Shown piece by piece: positions 20,043-54,668 of a stretch of DNA of 64,000 bases. Made by a program: the position numbers and the translations under genes. The notes under the pieces are model-generated. The model searched no databases and was not told the origin of the DNA. It saw only the letters and a list, made by a program, of their open reading frames with translations. Every line of letters starts with the position of its first letter. The stretch's first letter is position 1. The stretch is from Anaerolineales bacterium. GTDB lineage: Bacteria; Chloroflexota; Anaerolineae; Anaerolineales; RBG-16-64-43. The stretch is taken from positions 4,016 through 68,015 of the forward strand of contig JBEKSY010000014.1 of the NCBI GenBank assembly GCA_049516595.1. Reading direction: 5' to 3'.

Positions 20043-20080
20043 GAGCGGCCCTGGCCTGGAATCCAGGGCCGCTCTGTCTT
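20043..20080 (+). terminator. intrinsic terminator downstream of SHOCT gene
   Basis: A 12-bp perfect stem GAGCGGCCCTGG (20043-20054) / CCAGGGCCGCTC (20063-20074) with an 8-nt loop is followed by the pyrimidine-rich TGTCTT. Confidence 0.6.
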
Positions 20081-48923: not shown

Positions 48924-50555
48924 CTACTTGTGTGCCGCCGCGTGCCGGCTGCGCAGCAGCTTCTTATCTATCTTCGCAACGCTGGTCTTGGGGATCTCGT
49001 CGACGAAGACATAGCTGTCGGGCACCGACCAGTTGGTGATAACGCCTTCCTTCACATACTTGTTCAGGTGGCCTTTGAGCTCCTCTGCGGTCAGCTTGTT
49101 CTTGAACCCTTCCCGCGCCACGATGATGGCCTGCGGGCGCTCACCCCACTTCTCGTCGGGAATTCCGATGACCGCCGCCTCCGACACGCCCTCGTGCAGG
49201 CTGAGGAGATTCTCTAGCTCCAGGGAGACAATCCACTCGCCCCCGCTCTTGATCACATCCTTGAGGCGGTCGACGATTTGGACATACCCGTATTCGTCGA
49301 CGTTCGCCACATCCCCCGTGTGCATCCATCCGCCCGCCCACAACTCCTCCGAGCGTTGGGGCTCCTTGAAATAGGCTGGGGTCAACCACGGGGCCCGCAC
49401 GACGATCTCGCCTGTCTCTTTGCCGTCCCGGGCCACCTCCTTGCCCGTGGTGTCGACCACCTTCAAGTCGACCAGGGGGATGACAAACCCAGTCTTGATC
49501 GCCCAGTCCAGGCGCTTCTCCTCGCCCCAGTCCTTTTCCATGAATGGTTTGAGATTGGCAATGGTGAGGACCGGGCAGGTCTCGGACAGGCCGTAGCCGG
49601 CGTACACCTTGATTCCCAGTTTGGTCGCCTCCATCGCCAAGCCTTTGGGCAGTCTGGCTCCGCCGATGATCACCTTCCAGCGGCTCAGGTCGGCTTTTCT
49701 CACTTCAGGAGCGGTGACGATGGTTTGCAGAATGGTCGGGACGCAGTGGCTGAAGGTCACCTTCTCGCCCAGGATGAGGCGCAGGAGCATCGGAGGCTCA
49801 TACTTACCGGGATAAACCTGCTTGAGGCCGAACAGGGTGGCGACATACGGCATGCCCCAGGCATGGACGTGGAACATGGGCGTGATCGGCATGTACACGT
49901 CGGTCTTGTTCACCCCACCAAAGTTGCCCAGAGCCGAAAGAGTGATCGCGCCGCTCAGGGTATGCAGGCTCAGCTGCCGGTGCGTGAAGAAGACTCCCTT
50001 GGGTTGGCCCGTCGTCCCGGTGGTGTAGGATTGGGTCGCCAGGGTGTCCTCGTCGAAGTCAGGCAACTCCGAGAGAGGAGAGGCGCCCTCCAGAAGCTCT
50101 TCGTACTCCGCGTCCACCCACTTGATGGCTGGCTTCTCCTTCTTGTCGGTGATGAGGATGTACTTGCGAATCCCAGGCACCTTGGCGCGCAGGGCTTCCG
50201 CCAGCGGAAGAAAATCCTCGTGGAATATCAGCACTTCGTCTTCTGCATGGCCCACGGTGTATAGCAGATCGCCGGGTGCCAGCCGGGGGTTGATGGTATG
50301 CAGGACCGCACCCACGCCGGGAATGCCGAAATACATCTCCAGGTATCGGTGGCTGTCCCATTCGATAACCCCGACCCGGGTTCCTTTCTTCACTCCGAGC
50401 GCCACCAAGGCGCCACCCAGCCGGAGCACACGTTGGTACATTGTGCTGTAGGTGTGGCGAACCTGGTCGCGATAGATGATCTCCTGATCAGGCGCCCATG
50501 CCACACCCTGCTGGAGAATGCGCTTGAGCAGCAACTGGTAATCATACGCAGCCAT
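48924..50555 (-). CDS. AMP-dependent acyl-CoA synthetase (long/medium-chain fatty acid-CoA ligase family)
   Basis: 543 aa with the AMP-binding motif YTTGTTGQPKGV and later GYGLSE, TGD and SGGEWI motifs. RBS AGGAGGGAG. Confidence 0.9.
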   Translation of the reverse strand: MAAYDYQLLLKRILQQGVAWAPDQEIIYRDQVRHTYSTMYQRVLRLGGALVALGVKKGTRVGVIEWDSHRYLEMYFGIPGVGAVLHTINPRLAPGDLLYTVGHAEDEVLIFHEDFLPLAEALRAKVPGIRKYILITDKKEKPAIKWVDAEYEELLEGASPLSELPDFDEDTLATQSYTTGTTGQPKGVFFTHRQLSLHTLSGAITLSALGNFGGVNKTDVYMPITPMFHVHAWGMPYVATLFGLKQVYPGKYEPPMLLRLILGEKVTFSHCVPTILQTIVTAPEVRKADLSRWKVIIGGARLPKGLAMEATKLGIKVYAGYGLSETCPVLTIANLKPFMEKDWGEEKRLDWAIKTGFVIPLVDLKVVDTTGKEVARDGKETGEIVVRAPWLTPAYFKEPQRSEELWAGGWMHTGDVANVDEYGYVQIVDRLKDVIKSGGEWIVSLELENLLSLHEGVSEAAVIGIPDEKWGERPQAIIVAREGFKNKLTAEELKGHLNKYVKEGVITNWSVPDSYVFVDEIPKTSVAKIDKKLLRSRHAAAHK

Positions 50556-50727
50556 TCTTTCTCTCCCTCCTGGTCTACAAGTGACTCCTCTTTCCCGGAG
50601 CTCCTCGATGCTCGAGCTTCAGGTCAAACTTGCCAGTCTTGCGCCCATGCCTCCTTCCCTTCTTGTTGACAGTCCTCTGTCGCGATCCCCTTGCGCTGTC
50701 CATACGATGCCACCGATTGCGAGCCGA

Positions 50728-50759
50728 GGAAAGCAAAAGGGTCCCCCTGGGGGGGACCC
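50728..50759 (-). terminator. strong intrinsic terminator with no recognisable upstream CDS
   Basis: On the minus strand, a 9-bp all-but-one G:C stem GGGTCCCCC / GGGGGACCC with a 3-nt loop is followed by TTTTGCTTTCC. Confidence 0.6.
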
Positions 50760-50845
50760 CCGCACTATCGAAGAGAAAGGAGGACCCGATCACACGGAGC
50801 GAGCCACCGCTGTTGGTGCACCTCGCCTCCTGCCGCACTTTCCCA
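50728..50845 (-). ncRNA. candidate small RNA or cis-regulatory leader (promoter-to-terminator unit, ~115 nt)
   Basis: Bounded by the promoter at 50851-50878 and the terminator at 50728-50759. Internal pairing is possible between AGGAGG and CCTCCT, enclosing the hairpin GCGAG-CACC / GGTG-CTCGC. It also contains an 18-codon GTG mini-ORF (VHQQRWLAPCDRVLLSLR). Confidence 0.3.
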
Positions 50846-50850
50846 GGGCT

Positions 50851-50878
50851 AGTATAGCGCCAGAGCCCGCTAAGTCAA
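50851..50878 (-). promoter_or_regulatory. near-consensus sigma-70-type promoter (minus strand)
   Basis: On the minus strand, TTGACT (50878-50873), a 16-nt spacer, then TATACT (50856-50851). Only one mismatch each to TTGACA and TATAAT, in an otherwise GC-rich context. Confidence 0.45.
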
Positions 50879-51822
50879 GCAAATCCAATGAGCGGGACAA
50901 CTGGAGAGCCCCTCGGCTCGCTGAATCGATCGTGCCTGACCCTTCAGGGAAAACTCCCGTCTTCCCGGCATGCCGGGGCTCAACCTAGCTATCGTCTCTC
51001 CAGGGTGCCGAGGCCGGGAGAGAGCCCTTGGCGAAGTTCCAGAGGCCGGGCACGCGGGTCTGCATCAACGATCCGGCCAACAGAATCCGCTATGATTTCC
51101 GACGGGCATCCCCATGCCGGAAGGATCGGGAGCAATTGGTCCTGGGTTTCAAGCAAATAGGTTTTCCCGCCTTTCCCATTCCGGGGACATTGCGCTGGTC
51201 TTAGGGTGTCGAATTGTCTTGGGTGGCGGACCTTTTGCAGAGTACTCTTGGATCGGGTTGTGGGAAGGACCGCGGCTCGGGCCATCCGGCAGGAATTGCA
51301 CGCATCGTGAGAGCAAACCCCGCCAGTCATGGCGGTCGTGACCATATACTGACTGGGTCCAGATGCCTTCCAATCGACACTAGGCGTAACTTGCCGGAGG
51401 GGCAGGGCGCGTTTCTGTCTCGTGACTGCCTCGGGCTCAATTCGGTGGAAGGTGGATGCTCAGGCCCGTTGTTGTTTGCCAGGCGCGGGAGATGTGACCG
51501 CAGCAATAGGATCCGCTTCGGCTCTTGAATCAAGCAGGTCTCGACGGGAGACTTGGCAGGCCGGGGAGGCTAGGATTGGGCTGATCGGATCGACAAGGAA
51601 GGGGCCCTGACCTCCTGGGGATCTCCTCTCTTGCTTGAACCGTGGCACAATAGCCGAAATGGGCCCCGCCTCCAAGTGGGCTGGATTCTTGGATGGATTC
51701 GGACAATCGATTAGGGAGCCTGCCCAGCAGAATCATGATGAGAGGCTGGCCGGGATTTGGGAGGCACTTTCAGTCGCTCGCCGCGGGTGTCCGTTCATTC
51801 TCTTGCTGCTCAACCTAAGCTC

Positions 51823-52578
51823 ATGGCCACCGGCTCCGTTTTCGACGTCAGGGAGTTTACGGTTCATGACGGGCCGGGAATCCGCACCACGGTCTTCTTG
51901 AAAGGTTGTCCTCTTCGATGTGCCTGGTGCCACAACCCGGAGGGTCAGTCGCGGGACCCGCAGCCGATGAGAAGCCGGGCCGGGACTCGACAGGTAGGGA
52001 TCGAGTATGCCTCTGGTGAGCTGGCCGACATCCTGAATCGTCAGTCTGTGATCCTGCGCCCGAATGAGGGCGGGGTTACTTTTTCGGGGGGTGAGCCGCT
52101 GATGCAGGCCGGTTTTGTTGCGGAGGTGATTGATCGACTGGAGGATTTGCATGTGCTGTTGGACACCTCGGGCTACGGCACCGAACGTGATCTGCGCCTG
52201 CTTTTGGATCGCGTCGACATGGTGTATTACGATTTGAAACTGATTGATGAAGGAGCGCACATCCACCACACCGGGTGCTCCAACCGTCCAATTCTGAGCA
52301 ATCTGCAGGTGCTGAGCAGGAGCGGCGTCCCGTTTGTCGTGCGCGTACCCCTCGTGCCGGGGCTGACGGATACGGATGAGAACTTGGCCGGGATCGCCCA
52401 GGCGATCAAGAACCTGCCCGGGCTGATGCATGTCGATCTCCTTCCGTACAACCGCGCGGCGGGAGCGAAGTACGGGGCGGCGGGAATGGAGTTTCACCCC
52501 GAGTACGATGAGGCTCATCCGGTCCGTGTGAATAGCCGAGTGTTCCTCGAGGCTGGAATGAAGGTGCGTCTGGCATGA
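51823..52578 (+). CDS. glycyl-radical enzyme activating protein (PflA-like, no ferredoxin insert)
   Basis: MATGSVFDVREFTVHDGPGIRTTVFLKGCPLRCAWCHNPEG, then directly ...GVTFSGGEPLMQ. The two extra Cys clusters seen in the 8586-9503 paralog are absent. The start is set by alignment with that paralog (both begin MATG). Confidence 0.9.
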   Translation: MATGSVFDVREFTVHDGPGIRTTVFLKGCPLRCAWCHNPEGQSRDPQPMRSRAGTRQVGIEYASGELADILNRQSVILRPNEGGVTFSGGEPLMQAGFVAEVIDRLEDLHVLLDTSGYGTERDLRLLLDRVDMVYYDLKLIDEGAHIHHTGCSNRPILSNLQVLSRSGVPFVVRVPLVPGLTDTDENLAGIAQAIKNLPGLMHVDLLPYNRAAGAKYGAAGMEFHPEYDEAHPVRVNSRVFLEAGMKVRLA

Positions 52579-54668
52579 ACCCGAGAATTGAAAGACTGAA
52601 ACTGCGGGTGCGTGATGGCGAACACCGCCCCCTTCGCGGGCAGGAACCTCTCCGCCTCCTCGAGGAATGTGAAGAGGAGCATCTGTCCTGGTCGAGGCGC
52701 GTGGCGCGATTGACCGTCCGTCAATGCGAGGCCGAGATCGTCGTGGTTTCTCCTGACGAGCGCATCGTGTTCACCCGCACCCTGCCAGCCACTGTCCCCG
52801 CCGTCTACTCGGGGGACGAATGGGATCGCCTTACCATGGGACGGACGTTGCACGAACTGGGACCGATCAGCAATATCTGTGCCGACTGGGGGAAGGTCCT
52901 TTCACAAGGCCTACTGGGGCGGCGGAAAGTCGCTCTGGCCTCCCGCAGTCGATGCCGTGAACACTCGGAGGCCGTCGAATTCCTGGAGGGTGCCATCGAG
53001 TCAATCGATGCCGTCCTGGCGCTGGCGGCGCGCTACGCCGAGACCGCCCGTCGCATGGGCCGTGGCGAGATTTTCGAGATCCTCACCCGGGTCCCCGCGC
53101 AGCCGCCGCGCACATTTCACGAGGCCCTGCAGTCCCTGCGTCTGATGCACGCCGTGGTCTGGCTGGGAGGCAACTACCATGTGGGGCTGGGTCGATTTGA
53201 TCAGTACATGTGGCCGTACCTGAAGGCCGACCTCGAGCAGGGACGCCTGGACGAGGCCGAGGCTTTCGATCTTCTGGCCGAATTCTTCATCTCGCTGAAC
53301 AAAGACAGTGACCTCTACCCCGGAGTCCAACAGGGGGATAACGGGCAAACCATCACACTGGGCGGCATGGACGGGGCGGGCAATCCTGCAGTCAACCCGT
53401 TGACCTCCCTGGCGCTGCATGTGTCCCGGGATGTGTGTTTGATCGATCCCAAGATCAACCTGCGCATTTCCGCGAGCACAGATCTCGAGCTGCTCACATT
53501 GGCAACGGAGTTGACGCGCAAGGGATTGGGATTCCCTCAATACTGCAATGATGACGTCGTGATCCCGGGCCTGGTGGCGTGCGGCTACCGTCTGGAGGAT
53601 GCCCGGGATTATGCCATCGCGGCCTGTTGGGAATTCCTGGTCCCGGGGAAGGCCATGGACGTTGTCAATATCGGGGCGGTATCCTTTCCCGCCGCCGTGG
53701 ACCAGGCCCTCCGAGATGGGTTCTCGGCTGGCGAGGATATGCCGCAGATGCTCCAGCGCGTGAAAGGGAACATCGCCCAGCAGGTAAGCGATCTGGCCTG
53801 CGCCTACGAGCGCCTGCTTCTGCCGCCCGCCCCGTACTATTCGGTCCTGATGACAGACTGCCTGGAGGAGGGGCGCGACATCTCGGAAGGGGCCCAATAC
53901 AACAACTTCGGAATCCACGGAGCCGGCTCGGCGAATGCCGCTGATGCGCTGGCAGCCATCCAGGAGTTTGTGTTCCGGGAAAAGAGCGTTCAGCCAAGGG
54001 AAATTCTGGCCGCCCTGGATGCCGATTACGAGGGTTTCGAGGATTTGCGGGTGAAGCTGGCAGAGAAGGGGCCCAAGACAGGAAACGATGACGATCGGGC
54101 AGATCGCTTCCTGGTCGCATTGTTCCAGATGCTGGCGGAGGCCTGTGAGGGCTATGGAACCACCAGCCGAAAAGGAATCCTGCGTCCGGGATCAGGCTCG
54201 GCGATGTATTACCTCTGGCTGGCGCAGGGCCACCCAGGCATGCGTGAGCCGCAGGTGGGCGCAACCGCAGAGGGGCGTTGCAGCGGCCGACCCTTCGGAG
54301 CGAATCTGGCTCCCTCTCAGGGGGTGCAAATCCGCGGCCCGTTCAGTCTGCTTCTTTCCTACAGTAAACTGGACTACCGGCGAATCTGCAACGGCGGACC
54401 GATCACGATGGAACTCTCCGACTCGGTTTTTCGAGATGACGAGTCGGTGCGCAAGGTGTCTCTCCTAATCCGAGCGTTCGCCCAGCTGGGGTGTCAGCAG
54501 TTGCAACTCAACAGCGTCAATGTCGAGACTCTTCGGGATGCCAAGATCCATCCGGAGCTTCACAAGAACCTGATTGTCCGTGTGTGGGGCTGGAGCGGGT
54601 ATTTCTGCGAGCTCGCCCCCGAGTACCAGGATCAGATCATCGGGCGCCATGTGTTTGCGGCCGGGTGA
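52575..54668 (+). CDS. glycyl radical enzyme, short form (697 aa), substrate unknown
   Basis: The C-terminal glycyl motif is RVWGWSGYF (Gly672, codon 54588-54590). The Cys loop is ARDYAIAACWEF (Cys351, codon 53625-53627) with Glu at +2. The ATG overlaps the activase stop (ATGA at 52575-52578). Confidence 0.88.
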   Translation: MNPRIERLKLRVRDGEHRPLRGQEPLRLLEECEEEHLSWSRRVARLTVRQCEAEIVVVSPDERIVFTRTLPATVPAVYSGDEWDRLTMGRTLHELGPISNICADWGKVLSQGLLGRRKVALASRSRCREHSEAVEFLEGAIESIDAVLALAARYAETARRMGRGEIFEILTRVPAQPPRTFHEALQSLRLMHAVVWLGGNYHVGLGRFDQYMWPYLKADLEQGRLDEAEAFDLLAEFFISLNKDSDLYPGVQQGDNGQTITLGGMDGAGNPAVNPLTSLALHVSRDVCLIDPKINLRISASTDLELLTLATELTRKGLGFPQYCNDDVVIPGLVACGYRLEDARDYAIAACWEFLVPGKAMDVVNIGAVSFPAAVDQALRDGFSAGEDMPQMLQRVKGNIAQQVSDLACAYERLLLPPAPYYSVLMTDCLEEGRDISEGAQYNNFGIHGAGSANAADALAAIQEFVFREKSVQPREILAALDADYEGFEDLRVKLAEKGPKTGNDDDRADRFLVALFQMLAEACEGYGTTSRKGILRPGSGSAMYYLWLAQGHPGMREPQVGATAEGRCSGRPFGANLAPSQGVQIRGPFSLLLSYSKLDYRRICNGGPITMELSDSVFRDDESVRKVSLLIRAFAQLGCQQLQLNSVNVETLRDAKIHPELHKNLIVRVWGWSGYFCELAPEYQDQIIGRHVFAAG

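Follow-up and report, generated by a model that had tools for sequence, protein, structure and literature searches.

Known leader attenuators and the present locus

The leader-peptide attenuators of amino-acid operons (trpL, hisL, leuL and pheL, including the trpL/rnTrpL type) share one layout, in which a promoter, a Shine-Dalgarno (SD) sequence, a short open reading frame (ORF), a set of overlapping helices and an intrinsic terminator precede a structural gene encoded on the same strand. The same layout is found on the minus strand of contig JBEKSY010000014.1 from an uncultured Anaerolineales bacterium (Chloroflexota) of peat, within the 64,000-nt stretch analyzed here (referred to as the window), where it lies upstream of a long-chain fatty-acid-CoA ligase gene. 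The unit is most likely the promoter and 5' leader of this ligase gene, with the leader acting as an attenuator. As with attenuators of the trpL/rnTrpL type, termination would release an RNA of ~110 nt. In contrast to the trp, his and leu leaders, the present one has no string of cognate amino-acid codons, the downstream gene encodes a CoA ligase instead of a biosynthetic operon, and the overlap between the antiterminator and the terminator is small. Another difference is that the ORF ends beside the terminator and not inside segments 1 and 2. A completed round of translation would thus be expected to suppress termination here, whereas it promotes termination in the trp, his and leu type.

The pyrBI leader of Escherichia coli, which according to Turnbough and colleagues is reportedly a translation-coupled attenuator, provides a second comparison. 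As in pyrBI, the leader ORF reaches the terminator (and crosses it in L171, one of the relatives described below), at which a closely following ribosome would physically block the hairpin. In contrast to pyrBI, the present leader has a far shorter ORF and a ribosome-binding site that is itself folded into a hairpin, and it would control an unrelated gene. No U-rich pause tract comparable to the UTP-sensitive tract of pyrBI stands out on reading the leader, for which no dedicated search for pause sites was made. PMC5021804 describes that a closely coupled ribosome can prevent an intrinsic terminator hairpin from forming, and PMC6614838 describes rnTrpL of Sinorhizobium meliloti, a released trpL attenuator RNA that also acts as a small RNA (sRNA).

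The cis-regulatory families of Rfam (riboswitches, T-box, Chloroflexi motifs) share with the present unit the position in a 5' leader and a terminator that could serve as an expression platform. Unlike those families and the sRNA families, the unit has no conserved structure of the size of an aptamer. The Rfam scan proposed with an earlier sequence-only reading of this DNA matched no family: there was no hit at gathering score to Rfam 15 in the whole window, and no riboswitch, T-box, ANTAR-type or other curated covariance model was matched. With the thresholds relaxed to E <=10 for the region and E <=1 for three homologous loci, only chance matches appeared (STnc450 on the promoter, SNORD125 and mir-1323). 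A text search of the literature returned no described attenuator for such a CoA-ligase gene. The element is most likely a previously undescribed sequence family, belonging to no curated family, with an ordinary, textbook attenuator design.

Promoter and terminator of the unit

The sequence-only reading had proposed a near-consensus TTGACT-N16-TATACT promoter on the minus strand, followed after about 90 nt by a hairpin with a T-tail. Both signals are present, at 50878-50851 and 50761-50730, respectively:

50873-50878, minus strand: -35 hexamer TTGACT, invariant in all five variants of the unit
50851-50856, minus strand: -10 hexamer TATACT, 16 nt after the -35 hexamer, invariant in the five variants
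50730-50761, minus strand: intrinsic terminator, with stem 50761-50737 (GGGGGTCCCCC/CCA/GGGGGACCCTT), loop CCA and tail TTTTGCTTT ending at 50730
48924-50555, minus strand: long-chain fatty-acid-CoA ligase gene (543 aa), the presumed regulated gene, with the Pfam domains AMP-binding and AMP-binding_C

The distance from promoter to hairpin is 90 nt, and transcription would start near G50844. The hairpin had been described as one of 9 G:C pairs; a 9-bp core is indeed there, within a full stem of 11 pairs of which 8 are G:C. The plus strand has no T-run at this position, which implies action in one direction only and shows that the terminator is not that of an upstream gene. The ligase ATG was placed about 170 nt further downstream on the same strand by the earlier reading, and it is found at 50555, with 174 nt between it and the T-tract.

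In a consensus scan of 45-56 kb, TTGACT-N16-TATACT is the sole promoter-like site and the hairpin is the top-ranked terminator. Over the whole window, a promoter match of 10/12 or better occurs once and a strong hairpin-plus-T terminator four times, compared to 1.2 and 1.4 times in shuffled sequences, and neither a promoter match nor a terminator match is beyond chance on its own. A lone promoter 90 nt upstream of one of the four terminators on the same strand would be expected ~0.006 times, as estimated from the window and shuffle counts. The unit is not attributed to chance because it is also conserved in relatives. The other three strong hairpin-plus-T terminators of the window, at 20043 (plus strand), 13824 (minus) and 5417 (minus), each lie 17-78 nt past a long ORF, which suggests that such hairpins serve as terminators in this genome.

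Conservation in relatives

The ligase protein was used as a query to obtain a graded series of homologs, and the contigs carrying these homologs were compared. Five distinct versions of the unit were obtained: those of the window, of L001 (the same in 14 other contigs), of L181, of L171 (the same in L172) and of L176. The unit is found in every contig with a ligase at least 91% identical, and all of these share the same neighbors, an activase and a radical enzyme. It is absent in orthologs at 66-86% ligase identity, where the neighbors differ. A metagenome scan with the ligase protein returned only relatives at most 76% identical, none of them with the unit, and the further look-ups (P0002, P0004, P0007 and P0008) gave no additional variant. 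No extra copy was detected in the 64-kb window or in 47 related loci, using pattern searches and a covariance model (R1); by the covariance-model search, 43 other loci are without the unit.

The unit itself is real and conserved, with its promoter, terminator, ribosome-binding site, start and stop codons of the ORF, and three overlapping helices. Between the window and L001, the ligase coding sequences are ~95% identical and the spacers ~80% identical, and the longest identical run in the spacer is a 46-nt block that contains the promoter. The more diverged L171 and L176 give the following identities to the window:

Upstream of the -35 hexamer: 38-51%, effectively unalignable
Promoter: 79-94%
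RNA body: 66-67%
Terminator: 77-86%
Terminator to ATG: 60-68%
Ligase coding sequence: 83-86%

Conservation thus begins sharply at the -35 hexamer and extends to the ligase ATG. The spacing between the two hexamers is 16 in all variants, though 6 of the 16 spacer positions differ. With hexamers and spacing fixed while the spacer changes, the promoter is, as judged from this comparison, under selection. The terminator hairpin has folding energies of -19 to -22 kcal/mol (z from -3.8 to -5.5) across the variants. All nine pairs of its core form in all five variants (100% of cells), while its loop varies among CCA, CAA, TTG and ATTGA.

In the intergenic DNA of L171 and L176 (~1 kb each), this promoter is the sole promoter-like site, and no promoter-like site was found between the terminator and the ligase ATG in any variant. 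The conservation from -35 to ATG and the single promoter-like site per intergenic region are the reasons why the unit is considered to behave as part of the ligase transcription unit. Four diverged orthologs without the unit (L173, L177, L003 and L081) have an 11/12 promoter, TTGACA-N16-TACAAT or TATCAT, at -113/-112 from the ATG, and no leader terminator was found in these four except for a weak hairpin in L081. The ligase gene family thus appears normally to use a consensus-type promoter of its own. As the sole consensus-type promoter candidate of the present clade precedes the terminator, the unit would represent the ligase's own promoter and leader. It is also noted that the promoter position in the four orthologs implies a conserved 5' untranslated region of ~80 nt, apparently with a hairpin, which may be a separate leader element.

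The remainder of the ligase 5' leader contains one further conserved block:

50556-50729, minus strand: remaining ligase 5' leader, with the invariant block GGGAAGGAGGC (50659-50649) and the ligase ribosome-binding site GGAGG (50570-50566)

The purine-rich block GGGAAGGAGGC is ~95-105 nt 5' of the ligase ATG and identical in all five variants. No conserved start codon follows it, and it reappears as GAAAGGAGGCGG in L179 and L180, both of which are without the element.

The leader open reading frame

An 18-codon GTG mini-ORF that stops 3 nt before the terminator stem had been noted from the sequence alone. Its presence is confirmed (50821-50765), together with a ribosome-binding site:

50826-50831, minus strand: SD sequence AGGAGG of the mini-ORF, also the 5' strand of the ribosome-binding-site hairpin, invariant in the five variants
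50765-50821, minus strand: mini-ORF with GTG (50821), 17 further codons and TAG (50767-50765), encoding VHQQRWLAPCDRVLLSLR*

The distance from AGGAGG to the start codon is fixed at 4 nt in all variants (CGAG in the window). Three variants start with GTG and two with ATG. The stop column is TAG, TAA or TGA in four variants and TCA in L171, in which the stop is lost and a 38-codon ORF crosses the terminator (peptide MPVAKQLAPREVVLPCPRSCGG...). The ORF has 17-18 codons in four of the five variants, with its stop 3-4 nt ahead of the G-run of the terminator (3 nt ahead of the stem in the window). The sole indel within the mini-ORF is one of 3 nt, in frame.

The encoded peptides (VHEQRRLAACDLVLLSLG in L001 and L181, MLERCSCAPRELVLLIG in L176) are 29-33% identical at 66-67% nucleotide identity, and the peptide sequence is therefore not under selection; no purifying selection on the peptide was seen across the variants. 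No tandem regulatory codons or repeated codon class were found in the five peptides. The retention of SD sequence, start, frame and stop is the signature to be expected if translation matters and the peptide does not, on evidence that is thin.

Overlapping helices in the RNA

The minimum free energy of the 119-nt segment is unremarkable (z = -0.77), so that the term "structured segment" used in the sequence-only reading is not supported by energy alone. RNAalifold applied to the body and to the full 300-nt leader found no covariation; the covariation term of the body is unfavorable (+2.76), with many pairs broken in L171 and L176. No conserved aptamer-like fold was found, and only ~15 nt lie 5' of the SD sequence. 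The option of a riboswitch-type attenuator, raised by the earlier reading, is not supported by these results or by the Rfam scan.

Three helices that overlap pairwise can be drawn in the leader. Helix 1:2 pairs GGAGGCGAG with CUCGCUCC (50830-50822 with 50803-50796) and sequesters the SD sequence and the start codon. It is paired in 90% of cells, compared to 32-52% for slid registers, and shows no covariation. Helix 3:4 is the terminator and is 100% paired. The second helix is a hairpin obtained by folding each variant without the 3' arm of the terminator, and it was scored on a gap-consistent alignment:

50758-50799, minus strand: hairpin 2:3, candidate antiterminator, with 5' strand 50799-50785, C/U-rich loop UCCUCCUUUCUC (50784-50773) and 3' strand 50772-50758

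Hairpin 2:3 pairs CUCCGYGUGAUCGGG (50799-50785) with UUCGAU..UGCGGGG (50772-50758), with a free energy of -10 to -22 kcal/mol across the variants. It is paired in 86.7% of cells versus 34-58% for slid registers, and three of its pairs are changed on both sides. The observed values were reached in 10 of 500 shuffles, a fraction that is not a probability. The covariation support for this hairpin is modest. Its CUCC is common with helix 1:2, and its four G's (50761-50758) are common with the 5' arm of the terminator.

The AGGAGG had been proposed to pair with CCTCCT around an inner hairpin. The two motifs are complementary (CCTCCT at 50783-50778) and the pairing can form in 93% of cells. It is not discriminating because the slid registers (53-83%) are nearly as good and no covariation is seen. 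The hairpin that carries CCTCCT in its loop (50799-50758) is the covarying one. The comparison of relatives proposed earlier thus yielded five conserved versions of the unit and three compensatory pairs in hairpin 2:3, and no compensatory change in AGGAGG:CCTCCT. Two other pairings were rejected. One, suggested between the 5' end and the T-tract, is not kept in L171 or L176. The other would join CCUCCUUUCUCU to the distant ribosome-binding site of the ligase; it amounts to 8 bp in the window and is not conserved in L171.

Proposed mechanism and alternative explanations

We propose that the leader could function as follows. Transcription would begin near 50844, and by default the AGGAGG would fold onto CUCGCUCC in helix 1:2, with the CCUCCU loop as an alternative partner. 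With segment 2 occupied in this way and the G-run free, the 11-bp terminator would form, transcription would stop near 50730 and an RNA of ~115 nt would be released. Loading of a ribosome on AGGAGG and translation of the 18-codon ORF would open helix 1:2. A ribosome at the stop codon, 3 nt before the stem, would cover the 5' arm of the terminator, and segment 2 may also capture the G-run in hairpin 2:3. The terminator would then fail and RNA polymerase would continue into the ligase gene. In such a scheme the act of translating the mini-ORF would matter, and not the encoded peptide. We infer the start of transcription, the translation of the ORF and the lowering of termination by translation from sequence comparison. 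A leader or attenuator of the ligase gene is favored by the conservation from -35 to ATG, by the single promoter and by the separate promoter of orthologs without the unit. Of the two attenuator options raised by the sequence-only reading, the leader-peptide type has some support from the invariant SD sequence and the retained start, stop and frame of the ORF. That the leader is an attenuator of some kind, set by translation or by another signal, is considered probable. A translation-dependent transcription attenuator of the CoA-ligase gene is proposed tentatively, at slightly less than an even chance.

Several observations weigh against this proposal. The start, the stop and the read-through of transcription are all deduced from the DNA, and a non-consensus promoter may be present downstream of the terminator. 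The variants number only five, represent about four lineages and are themselves the sequences on which helix 2:3 was defined. Hairpin 2:3 and the 9-bp core of the terminator have only ~2-4 nt in common, the minimum free energy structure of L171 holds both at once, and a fold with the full hairpin 2:3 is less favorable than the terminator state by 5-16 kcal/mol. In L001 and L181, a C-to-G change makes helices 1:2 and 2:3 weaker. The +1 frame is open as well in four of the five variants, so that openness is uninformative, and at this G+C content chance alone would leave a frame of 17 codons open in more than half of cases. There is also no regulatory codon run, and why translation should be linked to fatty-acid activation is not obvious.

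The unit could instead be the gene of an independent trans-acting sRNA of ~115 nt, the C/U-rich, anti-SD-like loop of which (UCCUCCUUUCUC, 50784-50773) pairs with ribosome-binding sites of targets while the ligase is served by a weak promoter of its own; or it could be attenuator and sRNA both, as is rnTrpL of Sinorhizobium. A short RNA bounded by a strong conserved promoter and terminator would be as expected for an sRNA. The C/U-rich stretch is displayed in the loop of the covarying hairpin and has complements in AGGAGG and in AGAGAAAG of the ligase ribosome-binding site, and attenuator-derived sRNAs have a precedent in PMC6614838. However, the loop that would act as seed is UCCUCCUU in four variants and UUCUGCCUU in L171, and the putative seed is not kept, L171 having UUCUGCCUUGUC instead. 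The element is also single-copy, located only beside the ligase gene in one narrow clade, and its conservation passes the terminator up to the ATG, with no second promoter seen. We consider an sRNA gene unlikely. An attenuator in cis that is not set by translation of the mini-ORF would account equally well for the evidence of a leader; the choice between the sequestered state with the terminator and the 2:3 state would then fall to an RNA-binding protein, another RNA, temperature or a small ligand. RNA pairing alone could be the reason why helix 1:2 and AGGAGG:CCUCCU are kept, and the 3' strand of helix 1:2 falls on the conserved "LAP" codons. Nevertheless, no Rfam family was matched (T-box, ANTAR-type and riboswitch models included), the sequence 5' of the SD is too little for an aptamer, the body has no covariation outside helix 2:3, and the substitutions among start and stop codons and the in-frame indel fit translation better. 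Such a non-translational signal is judged quite unlikely.

Two other explanations dispense with attenuation altogether. The ORF is laid out as a normal gene would be, with an SD sequence, start and stop codons and a terminator 3 nt past the stop, and it might therefore be the gene for a functional small protein of 17-18 residues with its own promoter and terminator. Its low peptide identity argues otherwise when set against the ligase, which is 91% identical at 83-86% nucleotide identity over the same lineages. Moreover, five non-synonymous and two synonymous changes separate the window from L001, and the frame of L171, in which the stop is lost, continues across the terminator; a small protein has hardly any chance of being correct. 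The unit might also be a fortuitous or decaying feature without function, conserved merely through close kinship. Taken singly, each signal is as frequent in the window as chance predicts, the carriers are all close relatives (ligase identity at least 91%), and the fold energy is not unusual. Yet in L171 and L176 the flanks have diverged beyond alignment, while the hexamers, their spacing, the SD sequence and all core pairs of the terminator are kept, which makes a functionless feature highly doubtful. Lastly, the translation-dependent attenuator can be drawn in a more specific form that joins it to a trans-acting RNA. Loading of the 30S subunit on the sequestered SD, and not stalling at regulatory codons, would pick between terminator and read-through and would tie the ligase, which stands beside a glycyl-radical enzyme operon, to translational capacity; the ~115-nt RNA would also act in trans through its anti-SD-like loop. 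We regard this combination as speculative and very unlikely to hold in full.

Ligase gene, neighboring genes and spacer

The CoA ligase scores 613 bits against NCBIfam NF004837 (cutoff 476). Its protein is identical to an NCBI entry for an Anaerolineales metagenome-assembled genome, and the closest genome contig comes from a SPRUCE peat metagenome-assembled genome. Divergent from it are two genes on the other strand:

Start near 51823, plus strand: glycyl-radical-enzyme activase, with a CPLRCAWCHNPE motif
52575-54668, plus strand: glycyl radical enzyme, short (697 aa)

The activase and glycyl radical enzyme genes (51823-54668, plus strand) overlap by 4 nt. The glycyl radical enzyme is under the cutoff for every NCBIfam model, the best being the subfamily model TIGR01774 (332 bits, cutoff 678), and it looks like a member of an uncharacterized clade. 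Its synteny with the ligase is limited to the clade with the leader element.

The gap between ligase and activase is ~1.27 kb without a credible gene. From the -35 hexamer to the divergent activase start there is ~0.94 kb (50884-51822), likewise without a credible gene, and the sub-lineages are unalignable there (38-51% identity). The whole spacer varies from ~790 to ~1400 nt among close relatives, and L001-type contigs have a ~97-nt insertion near window position 51508. No repeats were found in the ligase-activase spacer when looked for. The 118-aa ORF (50989-51345) was rejected as a real gene owning the terminator, since it matches no Pfam family and lacks conservation in L171 and L161. Two mechanical ORFs run across the element and through the terminator, one of 87 aa (50575-50838, minus strand) and one of 135 aa (50581-50988, plus strand). 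Neither has a Pfam match, and both are almost certainly not genes.

Implications

To our knowledge, the regulatory RNAs of Chloroflexota, especially of uncultured peat Anaerolineales, are almost unknown, and we are not aware that a fatty-acid-CoA ligase gene is usually considered to be under attenuator control. The proposed leader accounts for the position of the only consensus-type promoter of the window, ~320 nt before the ligase gene. It also calls for caution in annotation, in that the 87-aa and 118-aa ORFs in the spacer should not be called. The wider impact would be modest because the element occurs in one narrow clade and follows a textbook design. If the proposal is true, this lineage would have a compact, lineage-specific attenuator of ~115 nt ahead of its fatty-acid-CoA ligase gene, and a case in which translation of a leader ORF would suppress termination instead of promoting it.

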